Below are positions 13,152 to 29,436 of a stretch of DNA of 64,000 nt, piece by piece. Every line of letters begins with the position of its first letter. Position 1 is the stretch's first letter. The translations under genes were made by a program, and so were the position numbers. Location of the stretch: contig CAYQDU010000002.1 in the NCBI GenBank assembly GCA_964416275.1, forward strand, positions 1,282 through 65,281, given 5' to 3'. The notes beneath the pieces were generated by a model. The model saw only the letters and a program-made list of their open reading frames with translations, had not been told where the DNA came from and made no database searches. Origin of the DNA: an uncultured Anaerolinea sp. (GTDB taxonomy: Bacteria > Chloroflexota > Anaerolineae > Anaerolineales > UBA4823).

Positions 13152-13651
13152 ATCTTCTGCCCTTCCAGTGCCTCTATCAATCCCAGGTAAGGGTTGCTGC
13201 TATCTTTCTCACGCAAACGAGCGGCCATTTTTTCAAGCGCCCGGTTGAACACCTGCCCCAGTTCGTCCGGAATGAAGCCGGCGGCGATGCAGCGCAAGAC
13301 CGGCGCCAGGTGATCGGGCAGTTCTCCGCCTGTCTCCACACCAGCCTGGCGGCAGGCTGCCTGCATCTGCGTCAGGAAGTTGCCCCGCCTGTAATCTTCG
13401 CCCCAGATATGGAAACCGATATAGGGCGGGGTAAGGGGGTCCAGGTCCCAGGTGCGGGTGTACAGTTCCTCCCATTCGCCCAGGCTCAGCCGCCCAACCT
13501 GCGCCAGGAAGCCCAGCAATGCGGCTCGCCGGGGATGCGCCGCCAGGCGACCGGCATCCAGGGTGAGCTGTTCGTGCAGGCCCGCAAACGGATAGCGAAA
13601 GGCGTCGGCATAGATGGCATAGGTCGCATCGCTGATGGTTGGGGTGATCAT
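13148..13651 (-). CDS. narJ: nitrate reductase molybdenum cofactor assembly chaperone
   Basis: 167 aa between narH and narI, with typical NarJ/TorD-like size and position (YAIYADAFRYPF..., LPDHLAPVLRCIA). Confidence 0.8.
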   Translation of the reverse strand: MITPTISDATYAIYADAFRYPFAGLHEQLTLDAGRLAAHPRRAALLGFLAQVGRLSLGEWEELYTRTWDLDPLTPPYIGFHIWGEDYRRGNFLTQMQAACRQAGVETGGELPDHLAPVLRCIAAGFIPDELGQVFNRALEKMAARLREKDSSNPYLGLIEALEGQKI

Positions 13652-13654
13652 GGT

Positions 13655-15163
13655 TCACTCCCCACGCCGCGGCGCTTGCAGGTAGCCCAGCCCGGCCTCG
13701 CCCTTGTGGGCCAGCGGGTCGCGCAGCGCTTCCACCGATAGCTCGCGGTGATAAGGGGGCAGCAAAAAGCGCTCGTCGAGGGTGGGCAGCGTGGTCAGGC
13801 GGTAGATGGCCTCTGCCTGGGCGGCGTCCAGCCCGGCCTCGACCAGCATGGCTTGCGTGGCCTCGTCCACATCACCTTCAACGCTCTGGCGCCGCTTATA
13901 GGCGCGCACCGCCAACAGCTTGCGCAGGATTGTGCGAATCGGGGCTTCATCACCGGCGCTGAACAGGTTTGCCAGGTATTTCACCGGCATACGGGCATCG
14001 TCCAGGTGGCGGAACAGCTCAAAGTCGTGAGCGTCATCGGATAGATCCAGTTTATACAGCCCTTCTTCGATTACGCTGACCACCGGTGAGAGCGGCAGGA
14101 TGTAGAACATCATCGCCAGCGTGCGGAATTCGGGATGCAGCGGCAGGGCCAGCCCCCACTGCTTGACGAACTTATAGACGGGCGATTTCTGGGCAGCCTC
14201 GATCCAGCCGGCATCCAGGCCGCTATCATAAGCGGCGGCGATCACCTGCGGGTCGAACGGGTCGAGGATAGCCGCCCGCTGCGCCGCCGCCAGATCGCGA
14301 GCTGGCCCCATAGCCGCTTCAGGCAGCCGGTCGGCGTCGTACAACAGCACGCCCATGTAGCGAATGCGCCCTACGCAGGAATGGGCGCAGGCCGGCGCCT
14401 GGCCGGTTTCCAGGCGTGGGAAGCACAGGATGCACTTCTCAGACTTGCCAGTGGCCCAGTTGTAATACACTTTCTTATAGGGGCAGGCAGCCACGCACAT
14501 GCGCCAGGCGCGGCACTTGTTCTCGTTCACCAGCACCACGCCGTCTTCGCTGCGCTTATAGATCGCCCCGGATGGGCAGGCGGCCACGCAGGCCGGGTTC
14601 AGACAGTGGTTGCAGATGCGCGGCAGATAGTTGAACACCAGCCGTTCCAGCTCGCTCAACTGCTCGCGCACCGTTTCCGGCAGGCCGTCCAGGTTCAGGT
14701 CGTTCTCGGCATACAGCTTCGACCCGCCCAGATCGTCATCCCAATTGGGGCCGCCCTTAATTTCCATCGGCTGCCCGGTAATCATCGAGATGGGGATAGC
14801 GGTGGGCTGGTCATCGCCGGCCGGGGCGTCGAACAGGTCCTTATACCGGAAAGTGAACGGCTCGTAGTAATCGTCCAGCTCCGGCAAGCTGGGGTTGTAG
14901 AAAAGTTTGAGCAGCCCGCCCAGCCTGGAGTGCAGGCGCAGGCGCAGCGCGCCATCCTTCATCTCCCATCCGCCGCGGAAATGCTGCTGATCTTCCCACT
15001 GGGTTGGGTAGCCGGTTCCTGGGCGGGTCTCGACGTTGTTCCACCACATATATTCCGCGCCCTTGCGGTCTGTCCACAGGTTCTTGCAGGCCACCGAGCA
15101 GGTATGGCAGCCGATACACTTATCCAGGTGGAAAAGCATGCTCATGTGCGCGCGTACTTCCAT
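13655..15163 (-). CDS. narH: respiratory nitrate reductase beta subunit (Fe-S)
   Basis: MSMLFHLDKCIGCHTCSVACKNLWTDRKGAEYMWWNNVETRPGTGYP, CNHCLNPACVAACPSGAIYKRSEDGVVLVNENKCRAWRMCVAACPYKKVYYNW. Canonical NarH. Confidence 0.95.
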   Translation of the reverse strand: MEVRAHMSMLFHLDKCIGCHTCSVACKNLWTDRKGAEYMWWNNVETRPGTGYPTQWEDQQHFRGGWEMKDGALRLRLHSRLGGLLKLFYNPSLPELDDYYEPFTFRYKDLFDAPAGDDQPTAIPISMITGQPMEIKGGPNWDDDLGGSKLYAENDLNLDGLPETVREQLSELERLVFNYLPRICNHCLNPACVAACPSGAIYKRSEDGVVLVNENKCRAWRMCVAACPYKKVYYNWATGKSEKCILCFPRLETGQAPACAHSCVGRIRYMGVLLYDADRLPEAAMGPARDLAAAQRAAILDPFDPQVIAAAYDSGLDAGWIEAAQKSPVYKFVKQWGLALPLHPEFRTLAMMFYILPLSPVVSVIEEGLYKLDLSDDAHDFELFRHLDDARMPVKYLANLFSAGDEAPIRTILRKLLAVRAYKRRQSVEGDVDEATQAMLVEAGLDAAQAEAIYRLTTLPTLDERFLLPPYHRELSVEALRDPLAHKGEAGLGYLQAPRRGE

Positions 15164-15200: not shown

Positions 15201-18200
15201 CTAAAATTCCACCTGATCGAGCTTGCGAACGAACACAAAGGTATCGCGGTTCACGCCCGTCGGCCCCCAGTAGTTGAACGCATAGGAAAACTGGGCGTAA
15301 CCGCCGCTCATCAGCACCGGCTTGAGCCGGATCCGGGTCATCGAGTTATTCATCCCTGCCCGGCGGCCGCGCCCCGGCGACTTCGGAATGCCAACCGTAC
15401 GTTCGGTGGCATGATAGACAAACACCGTCCCGGCCGGGATGCGGGCGGAAACGCTGGCCCGCTGCACAAATACACCGTTGTCGTTGTACAATTCGACCCA
15501 GTCATTGTCCTCGATGCCCAGTTCGGCCGCGTCTTTATCATTGAGCCAGACGGGGTAGCCGCCGCGCGATAGGGTCATCATGCGGTGGTTCTCCGAGTAG
15601 GTGGAGTGAATGCTCCACTTGCCATGCGGCGTAATGTAATTGAACAGCTTGCCGTGCTGCCCGGCCAGGAGGCTCTGGTCAGCATCGCTGACCATCGTGT
15701 GGTCGGGCTTGGGCTTGTAGACCGGTAGATGCTCGCCCCAGGCCAGGTAGCTCTCGTGATCCAGATAAAAATGCTGCCGCCCGGTAAGCGTGCGCCATGG
15801 CACCAGCCGGTCCACATTGAGCGTAAACGGCGAATACGCGCGGCCCTGATTGACAATGGCCGACCAGGTGGGCGCGGTCAGCACCCGCCGGGGCTGGGAG
15901 ACAAGGTCGGCAAACGAGTAGCGCACATCGCGCAGCCCTGCGGCCAGGTCGGTTAATTCCAGGCCGGTCTTATGCTCTTCTAACGCAAAGGCGCGGTGGG
16001 CCAGCTCGCCGTTGGAGGCCGGGTCCAAGCGCAGGATGGCATTGGCAGCCTGGCGGGCTTCCTCCAGCGAGGGATAGCACACCGGCTCAGCTTTCGAGCC
16101 ATCCGGCCCGCTGCCATTCCCGTTCGCCCGGGGCCATGATTTGCCAAAGGTGCGCGGCTGCTGGGCCAACAATGCCTGATATTCATCTGCGACCGGAATC
16201 GTCAGCCCATGCGCGTTTACCCCGTTCTGCTCGACGCCGCGCCCCAAACTGACCATACACTCGTACAGGCTGGTATAGTCACGCTCGATGACCCGGAACT
16301 TGGGCATTGTCTTTCCAGGGATCGGTTCGACTTCGCCAGTCTTCCAATCCTGCACCGTCGGCTGAGCCAGCTCGTCGGGGGTATCGTGCTGCAAGGGAAG
16401 CATGACGATGTCTTTGACCGGCTGGCGCAGATGGACGCGCGCAAATTCGCTGACCTTAAACGCCACCGCCTTGTAGATTTCCCAATCGCTCTTCGATTCC
16501 CATGCCGGCGGTACAACCGCCTGCATGGGGTTGATAAACGAATGCAGATCGGTGGTGTTCAGATCGTCTTTTTCGTACCAGGTGGCGGCCGGCAGCACCA
16601 GGTCCGAGTACAGCGCCGAGGTATCCATGCGGAAGTTCAGGTCTACCACCAGGTCGAGCTTGCCGGTGGGGGCCTGGGGATGATAGGCAACTTCGGAGGT
16701 GCAGCCCTGGGCCAGTTCGGCGGCGATGGTGTTGCTGTGCGTTCCCAGGTAATGGCGCATAAAGTATTCATGGCCCTTGGCGCTGGCGCCGATGGCGTTG
16801 CCGCGCCAGATGAACCACACCCGGGGCCAGTTTTCCGGCGCGTCTGGGTCTTCTACGGCGAACTTCAGGCGGCCCTGCTTCAACTGCGCCACAACGTGGT
16901 TGATGATCTCGGCGTCGGTAGCGGCCCCCTGATCCTGAGCTTCTTTGACCACAGCCAGCGGGCTGCGGTTGAACTGGGGGAAGAACGGCAGCCAGCCGCG
17001 CCGCACCGCTCGCACCTGATGATCGATGGTATGACCGCCGGCCAGGTCTGTTGCTCCGCCCGGCAGTGCATCGTAAGCGGCAAAGCCACGCTCGTAGCGC
17101 CATTGGTCGGAATGTACATAATGGAAGGAAGGCGTGTTCTGCTGGCGGGAAGCCATGCCCCAATCGCCGGCAAAAGCAATCGCGCCCCAGGAGGCGTGAT
17201 TAACCAGCTTCTCCTGCCCCACGTAGTGCGCCAGCCCGCCGCCGTTCACGCCCACGCTGCCGGTCAGCATCAGCGCTGTGATGGCCGAGCGATAGATCAG
17301 GTTGTTGTGATACCAGTGATTGGCCCCTGCGCCGATGATGACCAGGTTCTTGCCGTGGGTCTTCTCGGCATTGTGGCCCCACTCTCTGGCAAAGCGCAGC
17401 AGGGTGTCGCGGTGAATGCCGGTCAGCGACTCTTGCCAGGCGGGCGTGTAGCAGGCCTCCTCGTCATACGACTGCGGATACTCACCCGGCAGGCCGCGCC
17501 CCACCCCAAAGCGGGCCATGGTCAGGTCGAACACCGTCGCCACGGCCACGCGCCCGGCGCTGGTCTGCACGTAGCGCACCGGAACGCCGCGCCGCAAAAC
17601 CGTTCCGCTTTCAAAGGCGTCGAAGCCTAATTCCAAGACATCGTCATGCGCATCGAGGAAGCTCAATTCCGGGTCAAGCGCCGCGCTGGTGCTGGCGTCT
17701 TCCATCTTCAGGTTCCACTTGCCTGGGTCTTGCTTGCTCCAGCGAAAGCCAATACTGCCCTTCGGCATGCGAGCGGTATCGCTGGCCCGATCCCAGACCA
17801 GCAGCTTCCAATCCCCATGTTCCTCATCGGCATAGTCTGCCAGGCGGTTAGCGCGCAGGTATCGGCCGGGCGCAGCCCTCACCCCTGGCCCCTCTCCCCT
17901 GCCGGGAGAGGCGAAGCCCAAACCTTCTTGCCCCATCTCATCAGGGGAGGCGAGGGGAATCTCCACCAAAAAGGGCATATCGGTATACTGCTTCAGATAC
18001 GCATTGAAATACGGCGTCTGCCGGTCAACATAGAATTCTTTGAGCAGCACATGGTTGACCGCCATCCAAAAAGCGGCGTCTTGTCCAGCGTGTACCGGGA
18101 TCCAGTAATCGGCATATTTAGCCACCTGCGAAAAATCGGGCGAAAAAACCGTCAGCTTGGCCCCCGCGTGGCGCACTTCGGAGATGAAATGCGTGTCGGG

Positions 18201-18938
18201 CGTGCGGGTCATGTTCAGGTTGGCGCCCATAACGGCAATAAAGCGGGCGTTGTACCAGTCGGCCGATTCGTGCACGTCGGTCTGCTCTCCCCACACCTCC
18301 GGGCTGGCCGGCGGCAGGTCGCAGTACCAGTCATAGAAGCTCATCGGCACGCCCCCCAACAGCGATAGGAAACGGCTGCCGGCGGCGTAGCTGATCTGCG
18401 ACATGGCCGGAATGGGCGAAAAGCCCACCACCCGGTCGGGGCCGTACTGCTTGACCGTATAGATCACCGAGGCGGCAATAATTTCCAACGCCTCGTCCCA
18501 GGAGATGCGCCGGAAGCCGCCTTTGCCGCGCGCCGTCTGAATGGCGCGCCGCTTTTCCGGGTCAGAGACAAGCACCGCCCAGGCGGCCACCGGGTCGCTG
18601 TACTGCTTGCGCGCTTCCCGCCAGGCGTCGATCAGCGTCCCGCGCCCGTAGGGGTATTTCACCCGGATCGGGCTGTACAGATACCACGAGAAGCTGATGC
18701 CGCGCTGGCAGCCGCGCGGCTCATAAGGAGGCAGGCCGGCTTCAAGCTGCGGGTAATCGGTGGCCTGCAGCTCCCAGGTGACGATGCCATCTTTGACGAA
18801 CACCTCCCACGAGCAGCTCCCGGTGCAGTTCACGCCATGCGTGGTGCGCACACGCCGGTCGTGCTGAAAACGGTTGCGATAAAATTCCTCCCACTGACGC
18901 TCAGCGGGCGATTCGACATCCTTAGTCCACTCATCCAT
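15201..18938 (-). CDS. narG: respiratory nitrate reductase alpha subunit (Mo-bisMGD), cytoplasmic Nar/Nxr type, with an in-frame repeat-derived insertion
   Basis: FS0 motif [23 protein letters not shown]. 1245 aa. No twin-arginine signal. Followed by narHJI. Confidence 0.95.
17873..17962. repeat. palindromic repeat (arms CCCCTCTCCCCT / AGGGGAGGCGAGGGG) embedded in frame in narG, encoding ...[28 protein letters not shown]...
   Basis: The arms match the arms of the intergenic element at 37743-37878 (TCTCATC..AGGGGAG.GAGGGG). There is an internal small hairpin CCTCTCCC-CTGCC-GGGAGAGG. Confidence 0.65.
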
Positions 18939-18962: not shown

Positions 18963-19826
18963 TTATACAGATTGGGCTGCGCCGCGGCCACGGCGGACAC
19001 GTTCGGCCGCCGATGTTGCCCAGCGCGGCCGGAAGGCCAGCATGACGACGAACAAGAGCAGCGTCAGGCCGGCGCCAATGATCGAGAACCAGGTCCCAGG
19101 CGTCACCAGAGCGGTGGGCGGCGGGAGCGCATCGCTGGCCTTGAAATACGCGATCAAGTCGGCCTGTTCCTGCGGCGAGAGGGGTTTATTCAGGAACGGG
19201 CCGGCCATGGTTGGGAAAGTGATCTGGTTCAAATTGGCGGTCAGGCCAGCCTCGCCGTAACGCTGCAGCACATGGGTCAGGTCTGGGCCCAGGCCGCCGC
19301 CGCCCAGGGGAACGACGCCCTGCACCGTATGGCAGGCCAGGCAGGCCGGGCCGCCGGCGCCCTGCGTCGTCTGTCCTATGAACAGCCGCCGTCCTGCCTC
19401 CGCGTCGCCCCCCGGCAGGCTCGCCGCCGGGCTGGTGGGCGCAGCCCCCACGCCGCCAGGGTTCTCCAGGTAAGCCAGCAGGGCCGCCACATCGGCTTCC
19501 GATAAGCCCAGGTTTGGCATAGGCACCTGGTTATTCTCGGCAAGCAACTGCTGCGCCACGGGGTCTCCAGAAGCAATCATCTTGTCTGGAGCGGAGATAA
19601 AACTGTGCAGCCAGTTCAGGTCTCGGCGCCGAGTCACGCCCTGCAAATCTGGCCCAACCAGTCTGCCGCTGCCAATCGTATGGCACGCGGCGCACTTTTG
19701 CCGGAACAGGGCCTGCCCATCCTGGGCGCTTTGCGCATCCAACCCGGCTGCGGCTGGCGAGAGCCGGGAGGCCAGCGCAAATGCGCTCATACAAAACAGC
19801 AGCACGGCAAGCAAATAACGTTTCAC
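18963..19826 (-). CDS. membrane-anchored dihaem cytochrome c
   Basis: Signal peptide MKRYLLAVLLFCMSAFALA. Two CxxCH motifs (CAACH, CLACH). C-terminal TM WFSIIGAGLTLLLFVVMLAF. GTG start at 19826 with GGAGGAA 5 nt upstream. Its stop lies 24 nt upstream of the narG start. Confidence 0.8.
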   Translation of the reverse strand: MKRYLLAVLLFCMSAFALASRLSPAAAGLDAQSAQDGQALFRQKCAACHTIGSGRLVGPDLQGVTRRRDLNWLHSFISAPDKMIASGDPVAQQLLAENNQVPMPNLGLSEADVAALLAYLENPGGVGAAPTSPAASLPGGDAEAGRRLFIGQTTQGAGGPACLACHTVQGVVPLGGGGLGPDLTHVLQRYGEAGLTANLNQITFPTMAGPFLNKPLSPQEQADLIAYFKASDALPPPTALVTPGTWFSIIGAGLTLLLFVVMLAFRPRWATSAAERVRRGRGAAQSV

Positions 19827-20243: not shown

Positions 20244-20768
20244 TCACAACACCGTCGTTTTGAGGGTTTCTGCTTCACCAGCTTTATGCTTCGACAACCA
20301 GGCTGTCCCGGCTTCTTCCCGCGCCGCCCGGCCCTGCCATTCATCGCGTTCGGCGCGCCAATGCAGCATCTCTCCAATGCCGGATGCGGCCAGCACGAAC
20401 GATAGGGTCAGCCCGATGGGATATGCCAGCGCCAACAAGCCGGCCAGCGAAAGCGCCACCCACGTTCCGGCGCAGGTGGGGCAGCACAGCAGCTCGCTAA
20501 TCACCCGTTGCAGCCCGCGCCCGCACGCCTCCACCGACTTGCCCGCGCCGCTCGAATCATCGACCACATCAGTAAACGGGGCCCGCAGCCAGCTAAAAAT
20601 AAAGTTATAGGCCACCGCTCTACCGCCGCGAAATGCCGCTACGCCGACCAGGATCAGGGCCAGCGGATCGTGCAGCACCTGCGGGCTGGCGGATAAGGCC
20701 AGCAGGCTGACCGCGCCCATGAAAAGGAGCAGCAGCAAGACCAGATAGACGCCGATGCGTTGATTCAT
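20244..20768 (-). CDS. DUF1360-like small membrane protein
   Basis: Start moved to ATG 20768 (MNQRIGVYLVLLLLLF...), which forms an ATGA overlap with the upstream cytochrome c stop. FRGGRAVAYNFIFSWLRAPF ... ELLCCPTCAGTWVAL resembles DUF1360. Confidence 0.55.
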   Translation of the reverse strand: MNQRIGVYLVLLLLLFMGAVSLLALSASPQVLHDPLALILVGVAAFRGGRAVAYNFIFSWLRAPFTDVVDDSSGAGKSVEACGRGLQRVISELLCCPTCAGTWVALSLAGLLALAYPIGLTLSFVLAASGIGEMLHWRAERDEWQGRAAREEAGTAWLSKHKAGEAETLKTTVL

Positions 20769-21937
20769 GGCTGCAGCGTTCTCAGCCAGGCGATGATATC
20801 GGCAATCTGCTGCTCGGTCAGGCGGTCGGCAAAACCAGCCATGGCGGTTCCAGGGCGGCCGGTCTGGATGAAGTGCAGCAGGTCGGCGCTCGTTTGGCCC
20901 TGTACAAAGGCGCTGTTGTGCAGCGGCAGGCCCACCCCACCTTCGCCCTGCTGTCCATGACAGGCGGCGCATTGCGCCAAAAAGAGCTGATTGCCGGTCT
21001 GCGGGTCGCCAGGAGGCCAGTTCTGCTTGAGATCGGCCAGGGCCTGGGCGGCGCCTTTCACCTCCCCGGCCTGAATTTGGGCCAGGATGGATTGCAGCAA
21101 ACTGGCGGCCTGGCCCTGGCTGACCTCTATCGCCCGCTTCAGATGAAGCTGAGCGCTGGCCGGATCATCCTGAGAAAGGGCAAAGCGGGCCTGGTCGAGC
21201 AGCTGCGTCACAGAATAGGCAGGCTGGACGGCTTTCCCTGCTCGCCAGGCGCCAATCAGCGCTACCAGGTCGTCGATTTGCGCCGGCGAAAGCACCGTTC
21301 CCCAGGTGGGCATCCCCCTGGCCGGGCGGCCATTGGCGATCACGCTGCGGTACCAGTCATCGCCAAAGCTGCCCAGCCGGGCCGCATCATTCAGGGCGGG
21401 AATGCCGGGGTTGCCGCCGCGGCCATCTTCGCCGTGGCAAACCACACAGGTCGAGGCAAACAGCAGCGCGCCCTGGGCCGGGTCCGCCGGGCGGGCCGCG
21501 GCAGGCAAGATTTCGGGGGCGGTTGGCTCCCAGGCGCGCATAAACGCCACCACGTCGCGGATCTCCTCATCGGTCAGCGGGCCGCCAAAGTCCACGCTCC
21601 AGGATGGCATCTGCGTATTCGGCACACCCGAACGAACGACCGAAAAGAAGACCGTATCAGAAGTATTTTTCAACACCTTGCGGTTGTTCAACGCCGCGCC
21701 AACCCCGCCTTCGCCGCTGTTTCCATGGCAGGCGGCGCACTGTGCGGCATAGGTTTTCTCGCCGCGCGCGATGCGATCTTCCTGGATCAGGGCGGCGGCC
21801 CCGCCCAGGCGTTGGCCTTCTCCAAGCCAGTAGATACCCAGGCCAAACAGAATCAGCAGCGCCAGCGTCAGCCCAGCGACCTGAAGCCCGGTGTAATCCT
21901 CACGCTCGACAATTGGTTGGATGCGTGCGCCATTCAT
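20765..21937 (-). CDS. membrane-anchored trihaem cytochrome c (three class I cyt c domains)
   Basis: CAACHGNSGEGG, CVVCHGEDGRGG, CAACHGQQGEGG. N-terminal TM LQVAGLTLALLILFGLGIYWL. Start moved to ATG 21937 (MNGARIQ), 2 nt after the Rieske stop. Confidence 0.8.
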   Translation of the reverse strand: MNGARIQPIVEREDYTGLQVAGLTLALLILFGLGIYWLGEGQRLGGAAALIQEDRIARGEKTYAAQCAACHGNSGEGGVGAALNNRKVLKNTSDTVFFSVVRSGVPNTQMPSWSVDFGGPLTDEEIRDVVAFMRAWEPTAPEILPAAARPADPAQGALLFASTCVVCHGEDGRGGNPGIPALNDAARLGSFGDDWYRSVIANGRPARGMPTWGTVLSPAQIDDLVALIGAWRAGKAVQPAYSVTQLLDQARFALSQDDPASAQLHLKRAIEVSQGQAASLLQSILAQIQAGEVKGAAQALADLKQNWPPGDPQTGNQLFLAQCAACHGQQGEGGVGLPLHNSAFVQGQTSADLLHFIQTGRPGTAMAGFADRLTEQQIADIIAWLRTLQP

Positions 21938-21939: not shown

Positions 21940-22443
21940 TCACACCTTCAGCGCCTGACCCGGCTGATACGAACTGCGCTCGACCGGCCGGCTGGTGTCT
22001 ACCCACACCTCGCCGTTCACCACCTTAACCGGGAAGATGTCCATCGGACGCGGCGCCGGCCCCCCGGCGACCTCGCCCTTCGAATTGAACAACGAGCCAT
22101 GACAGGGGCAGTGAAACTGGCCTTCCGCTTCTGCATACGGCACCGAGCAGCCCAGGTGGGTGCACTTCTGGTACAGCGCCAGCAGCCCGTCGGCAGTGTG
22201 GCTGATGTAAAAACGGCCGGCCAGGACGCGGTTCACGCTGCCGGGTGGGAACTCTTGCAATGTTCCGGCGTAGACCATCCCCCCAAATCCCTGGGCTTGG
22301 GGTGGGCGCAGGAATTTGAGCAGCGCTCCCATCCATGCGCCGCCCAGGGCCGCCAGGCTGCCGGCAAAGGCAACCCCCAGGAACTCGCGCCGGCTAAAGG
22401 CCTGCATTTTGGTTTTTAGAGTTGTATGAGTTGTGGCATTCAT
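21940..22443 (-). CDS. Rieske 2Fe-2S subunit of a cytochrome bc/b6f-type complex
   Basis: Tat-like SRREFLGVAF. Rieske boxes CTHLGCSVPY and CPCHGSLF. Confidence 0.9.
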   Translation of the reverse strand: MNATTHTTLKTKMQAFSRREFLGVAFAGSLAALGGAWMGALLKFLRPPQAQGFGGMVYAGTLQEFPPGSVNRVLAGRFYISHTADGLLALYQKCTHLGCSVPYAEAEGQFHCPCHGSLFNSKGEVAGGPAPRPMDIFPVKVVNGEVWVDTSRPVERSSYQPGQALKV

Positions 22444-22505: not shown

Positions 22506-23273
22506 TTAGAGATTATCCAGAGGGCTGTAGCCGCCGGGCATATTCCACGGCCAATACAGGTGAAAACCAGGGCCGCGGAAGAAGAAACCGATCAGCGTAA
22601 ACACCACCGCCGAGACAAACAGCAGCGTGAACAGGGCGATCATCATCTCTCTGGCATTCGGCCGGTAGCGGCGCAGCGCCAGCGGCGGCGCAGACACGAT
22701 CAAGCCCATCATCAACGCCGGGATGATGATTTGCGCCACCCAATCGGGCGTGAGGCCGCGCAGCAGCTCGCGCGGCGGGAAAGCGTTATCAAGCAAGACG
22801 TAAACCGGCATGACCACCAGCGCATACAGGGCGGTCAGCAGGGCAATCTTCCGGCCGCGCCGGGAAGTAAACCAGCGTCCAGAGCCTTGCCGGCTGTTAT
22901 CCAGGTAGGGGATTGCCAGCACAAACAGCACCATGATCGTGGGCAAGATGACAGCCATCAGGGTGGGGTGGCCGTGTTCTAGCATTTCCTGCAGGCCCAT
23001 AAAATACCAGGGCGCTTTGGCCGGGTCGGTAGTGGTATTGGGGTTGGCAAACGCTTCCAGCGGCGCATTCCGCCCGATAGACATAAACAGCAGCGCCGCT
23101 CCTAAAATCAGCGCCAGCAAGATTTCAATCAGGGCCACCACCGGGAAGGCAAACACGGTGTTATCGGGGCCTTTTTCGACCATCGTGGTCGGCGCGCCGC
23201 GCACCAGTTCTACCAATGTATAGGTCTTTACGCCGTTTTGAGGAAAAGCGTTTTTTTCAGGAAGCTGAATCAT
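22506..23273 (-). CDS. cytochrome b C-terminal domain / subunit IV-like protein
   Basis: PAKAPWYFMGLQEMLEH (PEWY-type motif region), multi-TM. The start overlaps the cyt b6 stop (23270-23273). Confidence 0.85.
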   Translation of the reverse strand: MIQLPEKNAFPQNGVKTYTLVELVRGAPTTMVEKGPDNTVFAFPVVALIEILLALILGAALLFMSIGRNAPLEAFANPNTTTDPAKAPWYFMGLQEMLEHGHPTLMAVILPTIMVLFVLAIPYLDNSRQGSGRWFTSRRGRKIALLTALYALVVMPVYVLLDNAFPPRELLRGLTPDWVAQIIIPALMMGLIVSAPPLALRRYRPNAREMMIALFTLLFVSAVVFTLIGFFFRGPGFHLYWPWNMPGGYSPLDNL

Positions 23274-24013
23274 TGCGCCAGTTCCTTTCGATCATCATCC
23301 TGGGCCGCCAGGCCGCCGTCTTTGCGCACTCGCCATAGATGCACGCTGGTCAACAGGGCGATGCCCAGGGGGATAAAAATGACGTGCAGGGCATAGAAGC
23401 GAGTGAGCGCCGGCTGCCCGATTTCCGGGCCGCCCAGCAGGAAGGACTTGACCACCTGGCCGCCCACCGGCGCATACCCGGCCACGCTGGTTCCCACCGT
23501 GATGGCCCAGTAGGCAAGCTGATCCCACGGCAGCAGATAGCCGGTGAAACTGGCGCCAAATGTCAGCAAGAGCAGCATCACCCCGATCACCCAGTTGAAC
23601 TGGCGCGGCGGCTTATACGCGCCGGTGTAGAACACCCGCGCCATGTGCAGCACCACCACAAGCACCATCAGGTGCGCGCCCCAGCGGTGCATATTGCGCA
23701 GCAGCTGCCCAAACGACACCGCGGTTTGCAGGCGCACAATATCACTGTACGCATGCTCCACGGCCGGGGTGTAGTAGAACATCAGCAGCATCCCGGTCAG
23801 CGTCAGGGCGGCAAAGGCCAGCACAGACAGCACGCCCAATCCGAACGAATAGGCCCAGCGCAGGCTCTTACGACTCACCTTGACGGGGTGGAGATGAAAA
23901 AACAGGCTGCTGGTCATCACCAGCGAACGATCCAGCGGATTATCCGGCCAGCCATGCCGAAAAATCGAGCGCCATACCCGCGATTGGGTCACGTATTGAA
24001 CGACCTGACTCAT
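23270..24013 (-). CDS. cytochrome b6-type (N-terminal four-helix) cytochrome b
   Basis: LRNMHRWGAHLMVLVVVLHMARVFYTGAYKPPRQFNWVIGVMLLLLTFGASFTGYLLPWDQLAYWA ... FYALHVIFIPL. The start overlaps the stop of the upstream oxidoreductase (ATGA at 24010-24013). Confidence 0.9.
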   Translation of the reverse strand: MSQVVQYVTQSRVWRSIFRHGWPDNPLDRSLVMTSSLFFHLHPVKVSRKSLRWAYSFGLGVLSVLAFAALTLTGMLLMFYYTPAVEHAYSDIVRLQTAVSFGQLLRNMHRWGAHLMVLVVVLHMARVFYTGAYKPPRQFNWVIGVMLLLLTFGASFTGYLLPWDQLAYWAITVGTSVAGYAPVGGQVVKSFLLGGPEIGQPALTRFYALHVIFIPLGIALLTSVHLWRVRKDGGLAAQDDDRKELAQ

Positions 24014-26007
24014 GCCACACTCCCTTCATACGCTAAGGTTTCCCGAAAGCGAAAGGCTTCCATCGTGATCGCCCCCGTTGGGCAGCGCCTGGCGCACAAC
24101 CCGCAGCGGGTGCATATCGTATCGTCCTTAATCATGGCCGCCAGAGACGATGAATTACCCGCCGCATCAAGCAGAGCAGCCGCCTCGCCAGCGCCGGCTA
24201 AAGATTGGGCCAAAACGATCTTCAAACAATCCCATGGGCAGACATCTACACAGCCGTTACACAGGATGCACTTCGAGCCGTCGAATACGGTGTTGATGCC
24301 GCACTCCAGGCAGCGCAGCGCCTGGAAGTGAGCGGCATCTTCAGGATAGCTCGATTCGATTTGCGCAAGCCCGGTGCGGCGTTCCAGCGGCGTGGAGGGC
24401 GGCCTGGCGCGCATGTAATCCAGCCAGCCGGCGGGCATCTGGTGATCGGGGATCTCCGTCCAGGCGGTGGATAGCCCGGTTTTCAGCCGGCGGCCCTGCA
24501 GGGTTTCTTCGATGCCCAGGGCGGCAATGTGTCCATCGCGTACGGCGTGGATAATCAGGCGCGGGCCATAGGCGGCGTCTCCCCCGGCAAAAATATTGGC
24601 AACCGAGGTGCGCCCCGTTGCCGGGTCGATTGCTACCAGCCCGCGCGGGGTAACCTGAATATCCTCCGCGCCCTTCAACAGGCTCAGATCGGCGGCTTGC
24701 CCAATCGCCAGGATGATGCTGTCGCACTCCCACACGCGCTCGCTGCCCGGCACAAGGCGCGGGTTAAAGCGCCCGGTTTCATCGAACACACTGGCTACGT
24801 CGATGACTTCCAGCCCGGTCACCCGGCCGCCTGGCCCGATGATCCGCACCGGCCCGTGCCGGGGGTGAATGTGAATGCCTTCTTCCAGCGCTTCGTCTAA
24901 CTCCTGGCGCGAGGCCGGCATTTCGTCCCAGGATTCCAGGGCGATAATGCTTACTTCGGCCACGCCCAGGCGCAGCGCCGTGCGGGCCACATCCAGGGCG
25001 GTATGCACGGCCTCGCTCTGTTCTTCGGCGGCTTCCGCCTTTGGCGCAGCGCTGGTTTTTGCCGCCGGGGCCGCCGCAGCGGCAGCAATCCCCAGCCGCA
25101 GCGCCGTGCGCGCCGCATCCATCGCCACATCGCCGCCGCCCACCACGACCACCCGCTTGCCCAAATCGACGCGGTATCCCAGGTTGTAGTTCAGCAGCAA
25201 GTCCACGGCCGGGATGACCCCATCCAGCGTGACGCCTTCAAGGTTCAACCGGCGGCCCTGCATCAACCCCACGCCCAGGTAGAGGGCGTCGAAGTCCTGG
25301 CGCAACTGCGAGAGCGGAAGATCCACTCCAATGCGGGTCTCAAAGCAGAATTTGACCCCCAGAGAGCGGATCGATTCGACTTCCATATCCATGGCGTCCC
25401 AATCCACCCGGTAGATCGGCACGCCCAGGCGCATCATGCCGCCCGATTTGGAGGAAGCGTCGAACACGGTGACTTCATGTCCCAGCAGAGCCAGGTCGTG
25501 AGCGGCTGTCAGCCCGGAAGGCCCTGCGCCGATCACCGCCACGCGGCCGATGCGCCGTCCCGGCTGTTCGGCCAGCGCGGCCAGGGTTTCCCGCGACCAG
25601 CGGGCCGTTGAGAAATCCATACCCGGCGCGCCCGGCCCATGTCCCAACTGGCTGCCGGCCAGCAGGAACTGCGCCGAGGCCTCTCCGCCAGGCATGCGGC
25701 GCACCGATTCTGGCCCATAGCGTTCGGTCAGGACGCGCTTCAACGGGCGGATGGCAACCGGCTGGCGTTCGGGGCCAAAATCGCCGCGGCGGCATGCGGC
25801 TTCGCACGGCGCGCCGCAAATCTGGCCGCATACCGTAGACAGCGGGTTGGGATCGTGGGCAATCTGATAGCCCAATTCATACTCCCCGCGCCACAGCGCC
25901 TGAAGATAGCCGCGCGCATCGGTTAGCACCGGGCAGGCCGCCTGGCATTTCACCATCTTGCGATAATATTCTGCATCGGGAACAATGACGGGATATTTTG
26001 CTTCCAC
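24010..26007 (-). CDS. GltD/NfnB/SudA-like NAD(P)H-dependent FAD oxidoreductase with N-terminal 4Fe-4S region and C-terminal 2x[4Fe-4S] ferredoxin domain
   Basis: CQAACP...NPLSTVCGQICGAPCEAACRR; VAVIGAGPSGLTAAHDLALLGHEVTVFDASSKSGGMMRLGVPIYR; GGGDVAMDAARTALRLG; C-terminal CLECGI...CILCNGCVDVCP and CTRCGLCARRCP. The track start is GTG 26028. GTG 26007 follows GGAGG with 5-nt spacing and is preferred. Confidence 0.85.
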   Translation of the reverse strand: MEAKYPVIVPDAEYYRKMVKCQAACPVLTDARGYLQALWRGEYELGYQIAHDPNPLSTVCGQICGAPCEAACRRGDFGPERQPVAIRPLKRVLTERYGPESVRRMPGGEASAQFLLAGSQLGHGPGAPGMDFSTARWSRETLAALAEQPGRRIGRVAVIGAGPSGLTAAHDLALLGHEVTVFDASSKSGGMMRLGVPIYRVDWDAMDMEVESIRSLGVKFCFETRIGVDLPLSQLRQDFDALYLGVGLMQGRRLNLEGVTLDGVIPAVDLLLNYNLGYRVDLGKRVVVVGGGDVAMDAARTALRLGIAAAAAAPAAKTSAAPKAEAAEEQSEAVHTALDVARTALRLGVAEVSIIALESWDEMPASRQELDEALEEGIHIHPRHGPVRIIGPGGRVTGLEVIDVASVFDETGRFNPRLVPGSERVWECDSIILAIGQAADLSLLKGAEDIQVTPRGLVAIDPATGRTSVANIFAGGDAAYGPRLIIHAVRDGHIAALGIEETLQGRRLKTGLSTAWTEIPDHQMPAGWLDYMRARPPSTPLERRTGLAQIESSYPEDAAHFQALRCLECGINTVFDGSKCILCNGCVDVCPWDCLKIVLAQSLAGAGEAAALLDAAGNSSSLAAMIKDDTICTRCGLCARRCPTGAITMEAFRFRETLAYEGSVA

Positions 26008-26081
26008 AATTGCCTCCAATATAAGCACAGAATATCAGGCCGGCCGCCTCCCTGCCATCCGTCGCAACGTAGTGGAAGAAT

Positions 26082-26115
26082 GAAAGAAGAGCGATGTCCG
26101 CATCGCTCTTCTTTC
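26082..26115 (-). terminator. 15-bp perfect stem / 4-nt loop hairpin, probable terminator of the narL-like gene
   Basis: GAAAGAAGAGCGATG-TCCG-CATCGCTCTTCTTTC. On the minus strand it is followed by ATTCTTCC. It lies downstream of the response regulator stop (26282) and upstream of the oxidoreductase start. Confidence 0.45.
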
Positions 26116-26149
26116 AAAAGAATTAGGGCTATTCTGGCTTAGGGAAGGC

Positions 26150-26275
26150 GCCTCAGGCTGAACAGCAGCGCTCTCCGAAACCGGGGTGGAGACGCCTGGC
26201 GAGCTTCGCCGAAAGAGATGTTGCGCGGATTTTGTCGCCCTTCGGGCGACAAAATCCGCCTTCGGCGGAAGAGCC
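26150..26275. repeat. mosaic repeat: inverted M4 tail module + H2 hairpin (26226-26258, UUCG-type loop) + type-1 arm GCCTTCGGCGGAAGAGCC
   Basis: CGGATTTTGTCGCCC-TTCG-GGGCGACAAAATCCG is a perfect 15-bp stem. GGTGGAGACGCCTGGCGAGCTTCGCCGAAAGAG is the reverse complement of the module seen at 31764-31797 and 52508-52535. Confidence 0.8.
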
Positions 26276-26281
26276 ACACCG

Positions 26282-26935
26282 TCATAACAGGCCGCGCTGG
26301 CGGGCAACCTGCGCCGCCCGCCGGCGGTTGCTGACGTGCAGCTTGGCCAGGATATTGCGCATGTGGGTCTTAACCGTATGTAGACTCAGCGACAGGCTGG
26401 CGGCAATCTCCTTATCGCTTTGGCCGGCTGCGGCCAGCGCCAACACCGCCCCCTCGCGTTCGGTCAGCCGGTCGCGCTCGGCCTCGCTCTCATCGGGGGC
26501 AATGCGACTCAGCCGGCGAAACTCTTCCAATATATGCACCGCTATCGCCGGATCAATCGGCGCTTCGCCAACGGCCGCGCCGCGCAGGGCAGCCACCATT
26601 TCTTTGGCGCGCATGTTTTTGAGCAGATAGCCGCGCGCTCCGTTCTTAATGGCCTGGAAAAGCTTGTCTGGCTCTTCACGCACCGTCAGGATCAGGACAA
26701 CCGTTTCCGGGCAAGCCTGCACGATCTGCCGGGTGGCTTCCAGACCGTCCAGTACCGGCATCTGAATATCCATCAGGATGATATTGGGGCAAAGCTCGCG
26801 GGCTTTGACCACGGCCTCCAGCCCGTCCTCTGCTTCGCCAACTACTTCCATATCCGGCTGGGCGGCAATGATTCCCGCCAGGCCCTCGCGAAACAGGCAG
26901 TGATCATCGGCCAGCAAAACTCGCAGCTTCGGCAT
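26282..26935 (-). CDS. NarL/FixJ-family response regulator (REC + LuxR-type HTH)
   Basis: LRVLLADDHCLFREG..., ILMDIQMPVLDG, C-terminal LTEREGAVLALAAAGQSDKEIAASLSLSLHTVKTHMRNILAKL. Confidence 0.9.
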   Translation of the reverse strand: MPKLRVLLADDHCLFREGLAGIIAAQPDMEVVGEAEDGLEAVVKARELCPNIILMDIQMPVLDGLEATRQIVQACPETVVLILTVREEPDKLFQAIKNGARGYLLKNMRAKEMVAALRGAAVGEAPIDPAIAVHILEEFRRLSRIAPDESEAERDRLTEREGAVLALAAAGQSDKEIAASLSLSLHTVKTHMRNILAKLHVSNRRRAAQVARQRGLL

Positions 26936-26947: not shown

Positions 26948-28870
26948 TTACAGGTCCATCCCCGGCCGCAGCGGCCAGGTGAGCGTAATACAGGTTCCTT
27001 CCCCACGCCCGGTGACTATTTCCAGACGCCCATCCAACTGGGCGGCGCGGGCCTGCAGGATCTTCAATCCAAAGTGCCGGCGGCTATCATCGCCGGGTTG
27101 ACGCTGGTCGAACCCGCAGCCGTCATCTTCAATCTTCAGCTCGGCTGCATCGCCTGTGAGGCTCAGCTTCAGGCCAACGTGTTTTGCCTGCGCGTGCCGC
27201 CGGATATTAATGAGCGCTTCCTGCACAACCCCCAGCACATTCCGGGTATCCTCTTCGGGCAAGAAAAGCACGCCGGGCAAATCAACCTGCCAGCCCTGAT
27301 CTGACGGGCTTGCCAGGTTCATCTGCGTAATCAGCTCTTCCAGCCGCGCTTGCAAACTGGTAGGGGCTGGCGGCTCATCCACCAGGCTGGCAATTGTCTG
27401 GCGCACTTCGGTCGAGGCTCGGCAGATGCGCTCATACGCCTGGCTCAGCGTCTGCCCGGCCGCAGTCTGGTCGCCATTTTCCAGGCGGTCGCCGGCCTGA
27501 TCGACCAACAGGCCAATCGAATCGATGGTTTGGGCCAGGCCATCGTGCATAGCGGCGGCGATGCGCTGGCGCTCTTCGATGGCGGCCAGCCGTTCGGCCT
27601 GCCGGTACAGGCGAGCGTTCTCGATAGCTACCGCGGCCGCCCCGGCCAGGCGTTCCAACAAACGCGGCGCATCGGCGTTGAAGGCCGCCTCACGTTGGCT
27701 GCCCACGCACAGCGCGCCAATCCGGCGCTGGTCAATCCATAAGGGCGCCACCAGGTGGCTGCGCCGGAACTGCATTTCCACAACGCCGCAGGTTCCCAGG
27801 GCCTGTGCGGCCGGACACTGCTGCACGGTATGCTGGTTCAGGATCGCTCGAACAAATGGGTTGGCCGCATCGGCCGCGGGACCCAGGGCCGAATCTTCCG
27901 GCCCGCTGTTCGAGCGCAGGCGCAGCAACTGCTGATCGTCGTTCAGCAGGCAGAGGAAGGCGGTATCGGCTTTCAGCAGGCTGTGCGCCTTCTCGGTAAC
28001 CGAGCGGAAGACAGCATTCAGATCGAGGCGTGAGGTAATTTCCCGGCTGACTTCGTAGAGCGCGTCCAGTTCCAGCGTGCGCTCATCCACGCGCGCCTCC
28101 AGGGTCTGATTCCAGCGCAGCAGATCCAGGTGAGCGGCAAGCAGGTCGCGGCGCATGGAGTCAAAGGCCCGCGCCAGGTCGGCCATTTCGAGCGGGCCAG
28201 CGACCGGGACCCCGGTTTCCAGGTCTCCGCTGCCGATCCGGGCGGTGGCCGCTTTAAGCGCCGCCAGCGGGCGCAGGATCGAGCGGCGCGCCACCCAGAT
28301 TCCGCCCAGCAGCAGCAGCGACGCCCCCACGAAGAAACCGCCCTGCGCCCAGGCCAGCGCGGCAGAGCGCCGGCCGGCTGCATCCTGATACAGGCGCGCC
28401 AGCAAGTCTGCGTCTGCCAAAAGCACCGCCGACTGCGACTGCACATCTACCAGCCAATTGTTAGCGCCAGAAGGGGCGGCTTGGACGGCCTGGAGAGTCT
28501 TGTGAAAGGCCTGCCATTCACCCGCCAGGCGCAGCAGATGCGCTTGAATATCGGCCGCGCTGGCGGCCGGCAGCGTCACGGTCTGATTGGCGGGATAATG
28601 CACCGGCCCGCCATACCGCAAAGCTTGCAGCGTTTCTTCAAAGGCCCGCATGGCCTCGTTCAGCGCTTCTTGCTCCGCCGGGCTGCGCGCCGGCTCGACC
28701 GCCAAGCGGGTCATCCACTGGATCAGCATCCGCTGCCGGCCGGCCAGGTTGATCGCCAGCGCGTCGGACGATTGCCCCCTGAGGCCCCAGATTGTCCCCC
28801 CAGCCGAGATAATTACCAGCAGGAAGAAGGACAGAAAAATCAGGTTGAGCTGCCCGGAAATGCGGTTCAT
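26948..28870 (-). CDS. NarX-like sensor histidine kinase (TM - PilJ/NarX-type periplasmic P-box domain - HAMP - GAF - HisKA_3 - HATPase)
   Basis: Start moved to ATG 28870 (MNRISGQLNLIFLSFFLLVIISAGG). P-box-like AINLAGRQRMLIQWMTRLA. HAMP region ILRPLAALKAATARIGSGDL. GAF-like middle region. H-box ERQRIAAAMHDGLAQT. The ATPase G-boxes lie near the C-terminus. Confidence 0.8.
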   Translation of the reverse strand: MNRISGQLNLIFLSFFLLVIISAGGTIWGLRGQSSDALAINLAGRQRMLIQWMTRLAVEPARSPAEQEALNEAMRAFEETLQALRYGGPVHYPANQTVTLPAASAADIQAHLLRLAGEWQAFHKTLQAVQAAPSGANNWLVDVQSQSAVLLADADLLARLYQDAAGRRSAALAWAQGGFFVGASLLLLGGIWVARRSILRPLAALKAATARIGSGDLETGVPVAGPLEMADLARAFDSMRRDLLAAHLDLLRWNQTLEARVDERTLELDALYEVSREITSRLDLNAVFRSVTEKAHSLLKADTAFLCLLNDDQQLLRLRSNSGPEDSALGPAADAANPFVRAILNQHTVQQCPAAQALGTCGVVEMQFRRSHLVAPLWIDQRRIGALCVGSQREAAFNADAPRLLERLAGAAAVAIENARLYRQAERLAAIEERQRIAAAMHDGLAQTIDSIGLLVDQAGDRLENGDQTAAGQTLSQAYERICRASTEVRQTIASLVDEPPAPTSLQARLEELITQMNLASPSDQGWQVDLPGVLFLPEEDTRNVLGVVQEALINIRRHAQAKHVGLKLSLTGDAAELKIEDDGCGFDQRQPGDDSRRHFGLKILQARAAQLDGRLEIVTGRGEGTCITLTWPLRPGMDL

Positions 28871-28911
28871 AAAACTTCTCAATCTTCTGGTCGTTACGGC
28901 CTGTATTCCGA

Positions 28912-29436
28912 TCAGGAACGACCTGCCTCCCGCGCGTTGAAAGCCGCCCACCAGCCCGCGGCAGCCAGCGGCGGGCCGAGCGAGAACACGAATGCAACCG
29001 CCAGCCGCCAGCCGCCAGCCAGCTGCGCCGGCCACAACCCGGTGAGCGGCAGCAGCGAGCACAGCAGCGCTGCTGCCGCAACGGTCAGCCAGCGTATCCC
29101 GGCCGGCCGCCGGCCAGCCTGTTCCGCCCAGGCTGCCAGCAGCCCCAGGGTAATAAACCCCAGCAGCAATCCATGCAGATAAAGGATACGCAGACCGGCC
29201 GCTTCGGCCCACAGCGCCAGGGGTTTAATCGCCGCCGCCGCCAGCATTCCCGCCGTAAGCGCCAGGAATACGAGCGGGCTGCGCCAGCGCGGCAGCGCCG
29301 GCCACAGCCGCCGGGCATGCAGGAACAGTCCACCGGCGGCCAGCAGCCCACCCAACCCGGCCAGAGTGCGCAGGTCTGGCGGCACAATATCCGGCGGCAG
29401 GCCCAGCACGAAACTCAATGGCAGGCCCAGAATCAA
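28912..29436 (-). CDS. small polytopic membrane protein (about 174 aa), either translationally coupled to, or a frameshifted C-terminal continuation of, the upstream membrane protein gene
   Basis: This is the only coding-looking frame across 28912-29432 (LVFLALTAGMLAAAAIKPLALWAEAAGLRILYLHGLLLGFITLGLLAAW...). A TTG at 29436 overlaps the TGA of the upstream ORF (TTGA). The start choice is inferential. Confidence 0.4.
   Translation of the reverse strand: MILGLPLSFVLGLPPDIVPPDLRTLAGLGGLLAAGGLFLHARRLWPALPRWRSPLVFLALTAGMLAAAAIKPLALWAEAAGLRILYLHGLLLGFITLGLLAAWAEQAGRRPAGIRWLTVAAAALLCSLLPLTGLWPAQLAGGWRLAVAFVFSLGPPLAAAGWWAAFNAREAGRS

Follow-up and report, generated by a model that had tools for sequence, protein, structure and literature searches.

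We analysed a 64,000-nucleotide (nt) stretch of DNA from an uncultured Anaerolinea sp. of the Chloroflexota (hereafter the window, whose numbering is used throughout), in which a flavoprotein gene is joined to the genes of a Rieske/cytochrome b (R/b) complex. The flavoprotein gene and its partners, all on the minus strand, belong to a string of about 15 kb in the order flavoprotein, cytochrome b6, subunit IV with five transmembrane (TM) helices, Rieske protein, trihaem cytochrome c, DUF1360 protein, dihaem cytochrome c, NarGHJI and NarK. The flavoprotein open reading frame (ORF) of 672 codons, counted from GTG, that had been reported in a first-pass annotation is real, but its start is probably 26007 rather than 26028, since an alternative GTG at 26007 lies 5 nt downstream of GGAGG and its product of 665 amino acids (aa) has the length of database protein P0001, the top match, which is 100% identical and is the window's own protein. 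The flavoprotein stop codon TGA overlaps the ATG of cytochrome b6 as ATGA (junction …GTG GCA TGA / ATG AGT…, GTGGCATGAGTCAG), as had been noticed before, and the neighbouring gene product matches the cytochrome b family PF00033 (E = 2e-46) as well as PF13631. A second ATGA overlap joins the cytochrome b6 stop to the subunit IV start; the Rieske gene follows after 62 nt, and the trihaem cytochrome c gene starts 2 nt past the Rieske stop.

In the flavoprotein, for which neither a signal peptide nor a TM helix is predicted, Pfam finds Fer4_20 (residues 26-102), Pyr_redox_2 (162-499, E = 8e-27) and two Fer4 motifs (580-655); these and the other profile matches of the operon are strong, far beyond chance. 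The flavin adenine dinucleotide (FAD) site reads GAGPSG, followed by VFD, and the dinucleotide site GGGDVAMD. The best Foldseek matches of an AlphaFold2 model (predicted TM-score 0.79) are NfnABC (9bov_A), StnABC (8oh5_C), NfnB, dihydropyrimidine dehydrogenase (DPD) and GltD (E = 5e-41 to 1e-25), and the C-terminal domain matches FwdF (5t5i). Profiles and fold thus agree with the GltD/NfnB-like fold, the N-terminal iron-sulfur (FeS) region with GAGPSG and the C-terminal 2x[4Fe-4S] ferredoxin domain recognized in the first-pass annotation.

Identity as the GltD of glutamate synthase or as NfnB was rejected because no gltB or nfnA partner gene is present in the operon and all NCBIfam/curated models of the GltD/NfnB type score below their cut-offs (TIGR01316, 252 against 472; TIGR01317, 188 against 448; PRK12771, 426 against 516); the YRR motif is absent as well. 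The protein aligns to NfnA, NfnB and GltD structures at 137-258 bits and is 40-67% identical to R/b-linked proteins over its full length, which places it in a distinct family and not among ordinary GltD/NfnB enzymes.

An alignment of 82 cluster-linked flavoproteins, on which the dinucleotide motif was scored (as the quinol-oxidation, Qo, motif was on its own alignment), defines the signatures of this family. Seventeen cysteines are invariant or nearly so (21, 25, 60, 64, 68, 72, 566, 569, 580, 583, 586, 590, 594, 632, 635, 638 and 642), enough for four [4Fe-4S] clusters, and by analogy with NfnABC the N-terminal CxxxC would pair with the C-terminal RCLxC. Where 9bov has VLYRRT, the window protein has IIALES, and a (C/S/A)LE-type motif occupies this NfnABC YRR position in all 82 homologues. 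As a rule, a Glu rather than Arg-Arg at the end of beta-2 of a Rossmann fold selects nicotinamide adenine dinucleotide (NAD(H)) over its phosphate NADP(H). The Leu-Glu in place of the NADPH-type Arg-Arg therefore suggests that the cofactor is NAD(H) rather than NADP(H). Of the 'NAD(P)-coupled' label given earlier, the dinucleotide site stands, the NADP option is disfavoured by sequence, and coupling and bifurcation are hypotheses. All 82 homologues also carry an insert of 20-45 aa after GGGDVAMD that repeats the first Rossmann helix (DAARTALRLG … DVARTALRLG) and is not found in NfnABC; in the window protein it is Ala-rich (residues ~300-345; 24985-25110), and the AlphaFold2 model is of low confidence or disordered over residues 292-330.

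Relatives of the flavoprotein are numerous: 7,960 of 8,000 scored candidates reached E ≤ 1e-30. The best 120 have lengths of 645-700 aa and identities of 58-80% to the window protein, and the named ones among them come from Chloroflexi/Anaerolineales metagenome-assembled genomes (MAGs). An exhaustive search of 50%-identity representatives returned 2,897 proteins at E ≤ 1e-30, many of them full-length at 35-54% identity, and when one genome of each GTDB species was scanned with a 9-sequence alignment, at least 488 genomes had a relative. We examined the neighbourhoods of 81 loci from other genomes, among them the scan's best 80, which derive from Chloroflexota (Anaerolineales, Caldilineaceae, Ardenticatenales and Limnocylindrales), many Acidobacteriota, Ignavibacteriales, Bacteroidota, Calditrichaceae, Binatota, Planctomycetia, Zixibacteria, Eisenbacteria and Myxococcota, the last including the isolate Anaeromyxobacter sp. 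PSR-1. In 78 of these 81 loci, covering about ten phyla, tblastn searches with the window proteins found a cytochrome b and/or Rieske gene as the direct neighbour of the flavoprotein gene. The order is flavoprotein, cytochrome b6, subunit IV, Rieske, cytochrome c in Chloroflexota; flavoprotein, Rieske, cytochrome b, subunit IV in most other lineages; and Rieske, cytochrome b, …, flavoprotein in the Planctomycetia locus. Because adjacency is conserved across phyla despite these changes of gene order, an accidental juxtaposition, unique to this genome, was rejected.

Contig ends truncate two of the remaining three loci (L046 and L060), which leaves a Caldilineaceae MAG (L004) as the sole clear exception. 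At L004:3609-5537 the flavoprotein gene (46% identical) comes after genes for a PAS kinase and an OmpR-type regulator, and no cytochrome b gene was found in the 1.1 kb downstream, where the contig ends.

The protein might also be a soluble enzyme in its own right (an oxidoreductase like NfnB, SudA or GltD, a redox sensor or a repair factor) that is co-transcribed with the R/b genes without binding their products. The L004 relative fits this explanation, as do the closest solved relatives, which belong to soluble complexes, and the observation itself is one of gene order alone. We nevertheless regard it as very improbable: adjacency persists across about ten phyla through gene-order changes, the gene overlaps are translational, the protein has its own invariant C-terminal ferredoxin domain with neither gltB nor nfnA nearby, the GltD/NfnB-type models all stay under cut-off, and the homologue of Kuenenia is reported to co-migrate with R/b subunits, a report that reaches us through citing papers.

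Three types of clusters were distinguished. The Nar-linked type, with NarGH adjoining, comprises the window, L001, L003 (Ca. Desulfolinea nitratireducens) and L006, and L001 and L006 repeat the full window arrangement from kinase and regulator through NarGH. The second type, in 17 loci, places the module directly upstream of clade II nosZ and consists of flavoprotein, Rieske, cytochrome b fused to subunit IV, pentahaem cytochrome c, NosZ and NosD (the last two by Pfam); it was found in L005, L012 (8995-18790), L017, L018, L028, L032, L037, L038, L040, L043, L044, L048 (639-9700), L050, L052, L056, L058 and L071, whose hosts are Myxococcota (including Anaeromyxobacter sp. PSR-1), Thermoanaerobaculia and Holophagae-like Acidobacteriota, Ignavibacteriales and Calditrichaceae. 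In the octahaem-linked type, to which most remaining loci belong, chiefly of Terriglobia, the gene directly 3' encodes a c-type cytochrome that is related to an octahaem protein of L021 (~710 aa), and a ~440-aa protein without a Pfam match often comes next.

In a neighbour-joining tree, the flavoproteins group by cluster type and stand apart from YRR-type relatives of ~600 aa and fusion relatives of >1000 aa, except for the fusion protein P0131. As the tree lacks support values and is unrooted, rooting having failed because P0131 nests among R/b-linked proteins, it is used here for clade coherence only. P0131 itself (1069 aa) matches window residues 17-659 over its positions 443-1060, carries a fused N-terminal region of ~440 aa, and falls among the nos-linked flavoproteins.

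The cytochrome b6 gene product has four TM helices, and its four haem-ligand histidines align with His86, His100, His187 and His202 of b6. Gly58 aligns with the haem cn Cys35, and the CxGG cysteine is thus absent, as it is from 76 of 77 linked cytochromes b (it is present only in L014). An N-terminal extension of about 45 residues, aligned by a single cytochrome b chain of the PDB (9i4x_A, from residue 30), contains His40 in the motif LF-x-H-L/W-x-P-V/A-K-V, and this histidine is invariant in the same 76 of 77 sequences. Subunit IV, with five TM helices by hydropathy, matches PF00032 and ExtQ; its Qo motif is KAPWYF, and APWY is shared by 69 of 72 relatives, so that the family belongs to the 'APWY clade' of Kao and Hunte. 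The Rieske protein is, by its sequence, exported through the twin-arginine (Tat) system, and its box II reads CPCHGSLF (CPCHGS in 70 of 75 relatives). This S-F pattern was classified as 'Mid+' (~260 mV) by Kao and Hunte (2014), and a value of +335 mV has been measured for Kustd1480, whose box II is of this kind too (Hauser 2025, PMC12954380); the window protein is accordingly predicted to be of the mid/high-potential type. A trihaem, N-terminally anchored protein and a dihaem cytochrome c, both multihaem, stand in the place of cytochrome f or c1.

The closest parallel is found in anammox bacteria, for which Kartal et al. (2013) described flavoprotein-bearing R/b complexes; their bifurcation of quinol electrons to NAD(P)+ is a hypothesis (Kartal; Hauser 2025, PMC12954380). 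The best PDB matches of the window Rieske protein are 9rk4 (Kuste4569, E = 2e-19) and 9rk3 (Kustd1480, E = 3e-16), the Rieske proteins of Kuenenia stuttgartiensis R/b complexes (Hauser 2025, PMC12954380), which rank above all b6f Rieske proteins. A search seeded with the Planctomycetia homologue retrieved proteins named Scalinduaceae and Scalindua, and a MAG of the anammox family Scalinduaceae (L082) encodes the flavoprotein, a Rieske protein, a long cytochrome b and a multihaem cytochrome c. Through such Scalinduaceae homologues, rather than Kuste4570 or Kustd1483, the flavoprotein and cytochrome b were compared with anammox sequences, and L082 proved 40% identical to the window in the flavoprotein (full-length) and 54% in cytochrome b.

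Like the window, the Kuenenia operons Kuste4569-4574 and Kustd1480-1485 (Kartal 2013; de Almeida 2016; Hauser 2025, PMC12954380) combine split cytochrome b6, a 5-TM subunit IV, Rieske protein, multihaem cytochrome c and a GltD/NfnB-like FAD/FeS subunit, and Kustd1480 shares the S-F box II. The structural relatives of the flavoproteins are also common to both, for Hauser 2025 (PMC12954380) placed the clusters of Kuste4570 using 9bp5 (NfnABC, with the same chain sequence as 9bov) and 5t5i. Their AlphaFold3 model has an extra b haem between two His43 residues of Kuste4571, bridging haem bN/cN to the flavoprotein; the N-terminal histidine of the window protein lies at about the same position, and by this analogy His40 may be the same ligand site. 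The window differs in that the flavoprotein comes first and the Rieske gene after subunit IV, that cytochrome b6 has Gly58 whereas both Kuenenia models carry haem cn, that the cytochrome c is a trihaem class-I rather than a hexa- or octahaem protein with no hydroxylamine oxidoreductase-like partner in the window, and that the module is linked with NarGHJI in a heterotroph of the Chloroflexota rather than with the anammoxosome.

The anammox resemblance proposed in the first-pass annotation is therefore borne out, but its view that such arrangements are reported mainly from anammox bacteria is too narrow, since the class was noted earlier elsewhere. Kao and Hunte (2014) included Chloroflexi, Planctomycetes and delta-Proteobacteria in their uncharacterised APWY clade, and Dibrova (2017, our source also for claims of 2013) states that large FeS proteins that bind NAD(P) accompany cytochrome b 'subfamily G' 'in many other cases'. 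Both groupings share APWY, a mid/high-potential-type Rieske protein and a wide spread resembling horizontal gene transfer, with Chloroflexi listed; Geobacter ExtOPQ and the Pcm-linked bc complex are counted here. According to Dibrova, CxGG tends to be kept in short subfamily G cytochromes b, whereas the short window cytochrome b lacks it; the missing haem cn is a variant and not a defining feature, and the APWY clade and subfamily G contain cn-less members.

Other known systems are more distant. Canonical b6f and Firmicute QcrABC complexes likewise combine a Rieske protein and a subunit IV that is a separate protein with a four-helix cytochrome b6, in which bL and bH are bis-His haems, and cyanobacterial and plant cytochrome b6 chains match the window protein at ~154 bits; in contrast to them, the window lacks the haem cn cysteine, has APWY rather than PEWY/PDWY and five rather than three TM helices in subunit IV, and adds the N-terminal extension and the flavoprotein subunit. 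The N-terminal module of NfnB, GltD and DPD, like NfnA/StnC of NfnABC/StnABC, shares with the window protein the fold, Fer4_20 and Pyr_redox_2, the GxGxxG FAD site, the GGGxxAxD site and an N-terminal CxxxC that would pair with a C-terminal RCLxC; the window protein differs from all of these by its additional C-terminal 2x[4Fe-4S] domain, by ALE for YRR and by the 20-45 aa insert. Geobacter ExtOPQ belongs to the same subfamily as the window cytochrome b, but the ext cluster has no flavoprotein gene, and the window proteins miss both models (NCBIfam NF040969/NF040970; ExtP, 279.2 against a cut-off of 290; ExtQ, 45.9 against 150). Clade II nos modules (Anaeromyxobacter etc.) contain the same flavoprotein and cytochrome b families, but with cytochrome b fused to subunit IV, NosZ instead of Nar and another gene order. 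A figure legend in one nos-cluster paper lists 'Fe-S protein' genes beside those for Rieske and for cytochromes of the b and c types and does not mention a flavoprotein, whose gene may be among those 'Fe-S protein' genes. R/b complexes are mentioned in papers on Nitrospina, aquifer Zixibacteria, a Parcubacterium and Caldithrix, where the flavoprotein is not mentioned.

The features of the gene string and of its upstream region are collected in Table 1. NarGHJI lies downstream on the same strand; that Nar is next to the operon had been pointed out before. The regulator has homologues immediately 5' of the flavoprotein gene in L001, L002, L006 and L008, and L001 also has the NarX-like kinase upstream of its homologous cluster. 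In L001 and L006 the position of the dihaem cytochrome c is likewise the same. By gene content, the NarX/NarL-type system at the 5' side and narGHJI-narK at the 3' side would place the module in a nitrate-induced respiratory chain. Terminator-like hairpins separate the flavoprotein gene from the regulator gene, and the former therefore appears to open its own transcription unit, although this is suggestive only; as a promoter/terminator consensus scan of the operon was no better than the shuffled expectation, operon boundaries are drawn from gene spacing and hairpins only.

Table 1. Genes and other features of the R/b-Nar gene string and its upstream region in the window.
Feature	Position	Strand	Basis and remarks
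NarX-like sensor histidine kinase (PilJ-HAMP-GAF-HisKA_3-HATPase)	26948..29212	-	Pfam; true start probably internal, ~28870
NarL/LuxR-type response regulator	26282..26935	-	Pfam (Response_reg and GerE)
Intergenic leader	26029..26281	-	Terminator-like hairpin 26269-26255 after the regulator gene; second hairpin ~26125-26090
GltD/NfnB-fold FAD / NAD(H) / 4x[4Fe-4S] flavoprotein (predicted)	24010..26028	-	Pfam, fold, alignments; start probably 26007; cytoplasmic
Cytochrome b6-type subunit	23270..24013	-	Pfam; 4 TM, four haem-ligand His, Gly58 for haem cn Cys, His40
Subunit IV-like protein, 5 predicted TM, Qo motif APWY	22506..23273	-	Pfam, hydropathy, ATGA overlap
Rieske [2Fe-2S] protein, twin-arginine motif, CTHLGC and CPCHGSLF	21940..22443	-	Pfam, PDB matches
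Membrane-anchored trihaem class-I c-type cytochrome	20765..21937	-	Pfam; listed ORF extends to 22006, likely start the ATG 2 nt after the Rieske stop
DUF1360 membrane protein	20244..20972	-	Pfam; true start probably internal
Dihaem c-type cytochrome, signal peptide and C-terminal anchor	18963..19826	-	Pfam; immediately upstream of narG
NarG, cytoplasmic-type nitrate reductase alpha subunit, no twin-arginine (Tat) signal	15201..18938	-	TIGR01580, 1492 bits; N-terminus
NarH	13655..15163	-	Profile match
NarJ chaperone	13148..13651	-	Weak match, barely over the Pfam cut-off
NarI, quinol-oxidising dihaem b subunit	12459..13151	-	Profile match
Major facilitator superfamily (MFS) transporter at the NarK position	11139..12443	-	Ends the gene string; terminator-like hairpin 11132-11148

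The sole large gap in the string, of ~420 nt, lies between the DUF1360 and dihaem cytochrome c genes (19827-20243) and is overlapped by a plus-strand ORF (19957-20610) with high G+C at third codon positions. From its position, the gap could hold an internal promoter for dihaem c-narGHJI-narK. A cytochrome c gene upstream of narG recalls the nxr clusters of Nitrobacter, but nothing here supports Nar as a nitrite oxidoreductase.

The conserved linkage and the family signatures indicate that the 665-aa protein is very probably a genuine cytoplasmic subunit of an 'APWY'-type R/b complex. As to the direction of electron flow, quinol bifurcation toward NAD+ has, in our judgement, about an even chance at best. 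The flavoprotein would dock on the n-side of cytochrome b6 and exchange electrons with the b haems, its C-terminal ferredoxin domain wiring them to FAD, possibly via an extra b haem ligated by His40 of each cytochrome b6, after the AlphaFold3 suggestion for Kuenenia. Menaquinol (about -70 mV) would be oxidised at Qo; the first electron would run downhill through the Rieske protein and the c cytochromes to a high-potential acceptor chain, the second would cross the membrane from bL to bH and pass through the FeS chain and FAD to NAD+ (-320 mV), and this quinone-based bifurcation would take the place of the Qi half of the Q cycle. A Rieske potential near +260 to +335 mV would make it thermodynamically feasible, and that a high-potential Rieske protein paired with menaquinone allows NAD(P)+ reduction is a published argument (Kartal; Hauser 2025, PMC12954380). 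With haem cn lost, a competing quinone-reduction site would go as well, the site that Hauser 2025 (PMC12954380) names as the main difficulty. In clade II nos systems, the flow from quinol through cytochrome c to NosZ is accepted, and the nosZ-linked relatives therefore suggest that the c branch runs forward toward a strong oxidant.

Several points weigh against bifurcation. Even in anammox bacteria the function is a hypothesis, and the association of the flavoprotein with the membrane part is read from gene order only. A heterotrophic nitrate reducer would gain little from quinol-derived NADH, and NAD(H) specificity would suit an NADH dehydrogenase at least as well. Nar is not the acceptor of the c-haem branch, since NarGHI draws on quinol via NarI, and the window holds no gene for a further terminal reductase. 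Relatives without a flavoprotein, for example Geobacter ExtP, may share the His40 motif; the ExtP model starts just ahead of it, and the motif hence may not be specific to flavoprotein-bearing complexes. The insert in the dinucleotide domain, modelled with low confidence, may affect dinucleotide binding, and Kao and Hunte (2014) proposed that APWY complexes run in reverse.

With the same architecture working backwards, the flavoprotein would be an NADH dehydrogenase head anchored by cytochrome b6, the 'membrane-anchored dehydrogenase' of Dibrova. Electrons would pass from NADH through FAD and FeS clusters to the b haems and to menaquinone on the n-side, or the Qi half-reaction would be topped up in this way; the operon with NarGHI-NarK would then make up by itself a chain that leads from NADH by way of menaquinone to nitrate, in addition to one from NADH to cytochrome c. 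The Glu for Arg-Arg at the end of beta-2 suggests catabolic NADH, the module is co-operonic with the quinol-oxidising NarI under a NarXL-like system, and the explanation has been published (Dibrova), the predicted extra haem permitting it according to Hauser 2025 (PMC12954380). What it leaves unexplained is the constant company of a Rieske protein, a Qo-motif subunit IV and c cytochromes, together with a mid/high-potential-type Rieske protein in menaquinone organisms; by our own stoichiometric reasoning, the energy that it conserves would also not exceed that of NDH-2 together with a bc complex. We consider it somewhat unlikely.

Confurcation, in which electrons from a periplasmic high-potential donor via the c cytochromes and Rieske protein and from NADH via the flavoprotein and b haems would meet at Qo, reduce menaquinone and so feed NarI and nitrate, appears improbable to us. 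Kao and Hunte (2014) tie APWY to reverse operation, citing the p-cresol methylhydroxylase cluster of Geobacter, and the dihaem cytochrome c gene lies directly upstream of narG in the window, L001 and L006. Such a route has no experimental precedent, however; the window contains no gene for a periplasmic donor enzyme, and in the nosZ-linked relatives the c branch must go forward to NosZ.

The class of complexes is thus already known, and the window adds a Nar-linked member from Chloroflexota, of which a literature search of incomplete coverage found no description. What is new from our survey is the breadth of the family, its link to clade II nosZ and its set of signatures. The earlier description of a poorly characterised class holds, in that the class, although it has been published on (Kartal, Dibrova, Kao and Hunte, Hauser), is biochemically uncharacterised. 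While the arrangement would not surprise a specialist, its conservation and culturable hosts make an old hypothesis testable. A permanently attached NAD-linked flavoprotein would alter the textbook capability of R/b complexes, allowing NADH from quinol or an NADH-fed complex III. So far the case for this has been made almost exclusively for anammox bacteria, whose cultivation is difficult and which are genetically intractable; tractable hosts are cultured Anaeromyxobacter and many soil Acidobacteriota with the module by clade II nosZ or octahaem cytochromes, which connects the question to soil N2O consumption. The absence of haem cn, the invariant N-terminal His, the NAD-type Leu-Glu and the 17 cysteines offer targets for mutation.

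A bolder and rather doubtful proposal is that flavoprotein-bearing APWY complexes constitute a widespread 'NAD-coupled Q-cycle' in at least 488 species-level genomes. The low-potential menaquinol electron would not be recycled at Qi; it would travel through bL, bH, a third, inter-monomer b haem on His40, a four-cluster FeS wire and FAD to form NADH. If so, reoxidation of this NADH by complex I would approximately double the H+/e- of the quinol-to-cytochrome-c step with a strong oxidant (N2O, nitrate-derived N-oxides or O2). Recruitment of the module to a place beside Nar, clade II NosZ or octahaem cytochromes has happened repeatedly, and the module could for that reason be a factor, so far overlooked, that determines the growth yield of non-denitrifying N2O reducers and nitrate-respiring Chloroflexota.

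Other features of the window were also recorded. Directly upstream of the NarX-like kinase, a polytopic membrane protein of 621 aa (29433-31298, minus strand) has ~12 predicted TM helices and no Pfam/NCBIfam match; ORF 28912-30099 overlaps its gene. A second respiratory-type module (1679-7206, minus strand) encodes an NrfD-like membrane protein (617 aa) whose C-terminal part is a fused cytochrome c3 domain, an FeS protein of the Fer4_11 family, a protein of 234 aa without a Pfam match and a CCG/HdrD-like protein (461 aa), and its predicted products resemble a Dsr/Hme/Qrc-type quinone-interacting complex. Two tandem c-di-GMP-II (GAG type) riboswitch aptamers on the plus strand (43784-43882 and 44182-44292; 41.6 and 53.4 bits, both over the gathering score) precede a Wzz/tyrosine-kinase-like exopolysaccharide gene (44441-46687), followed by glycosyltransferase, Wzy and sugar-transferase genes to ~62.5 kb. 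Finally, the region 37879-41774 (minus strand) contains a polyphosphate kinase 1 gene, then two PPK2 genes and a ferritin-like gene; three consecutive polyphosphate kinases are unusual.

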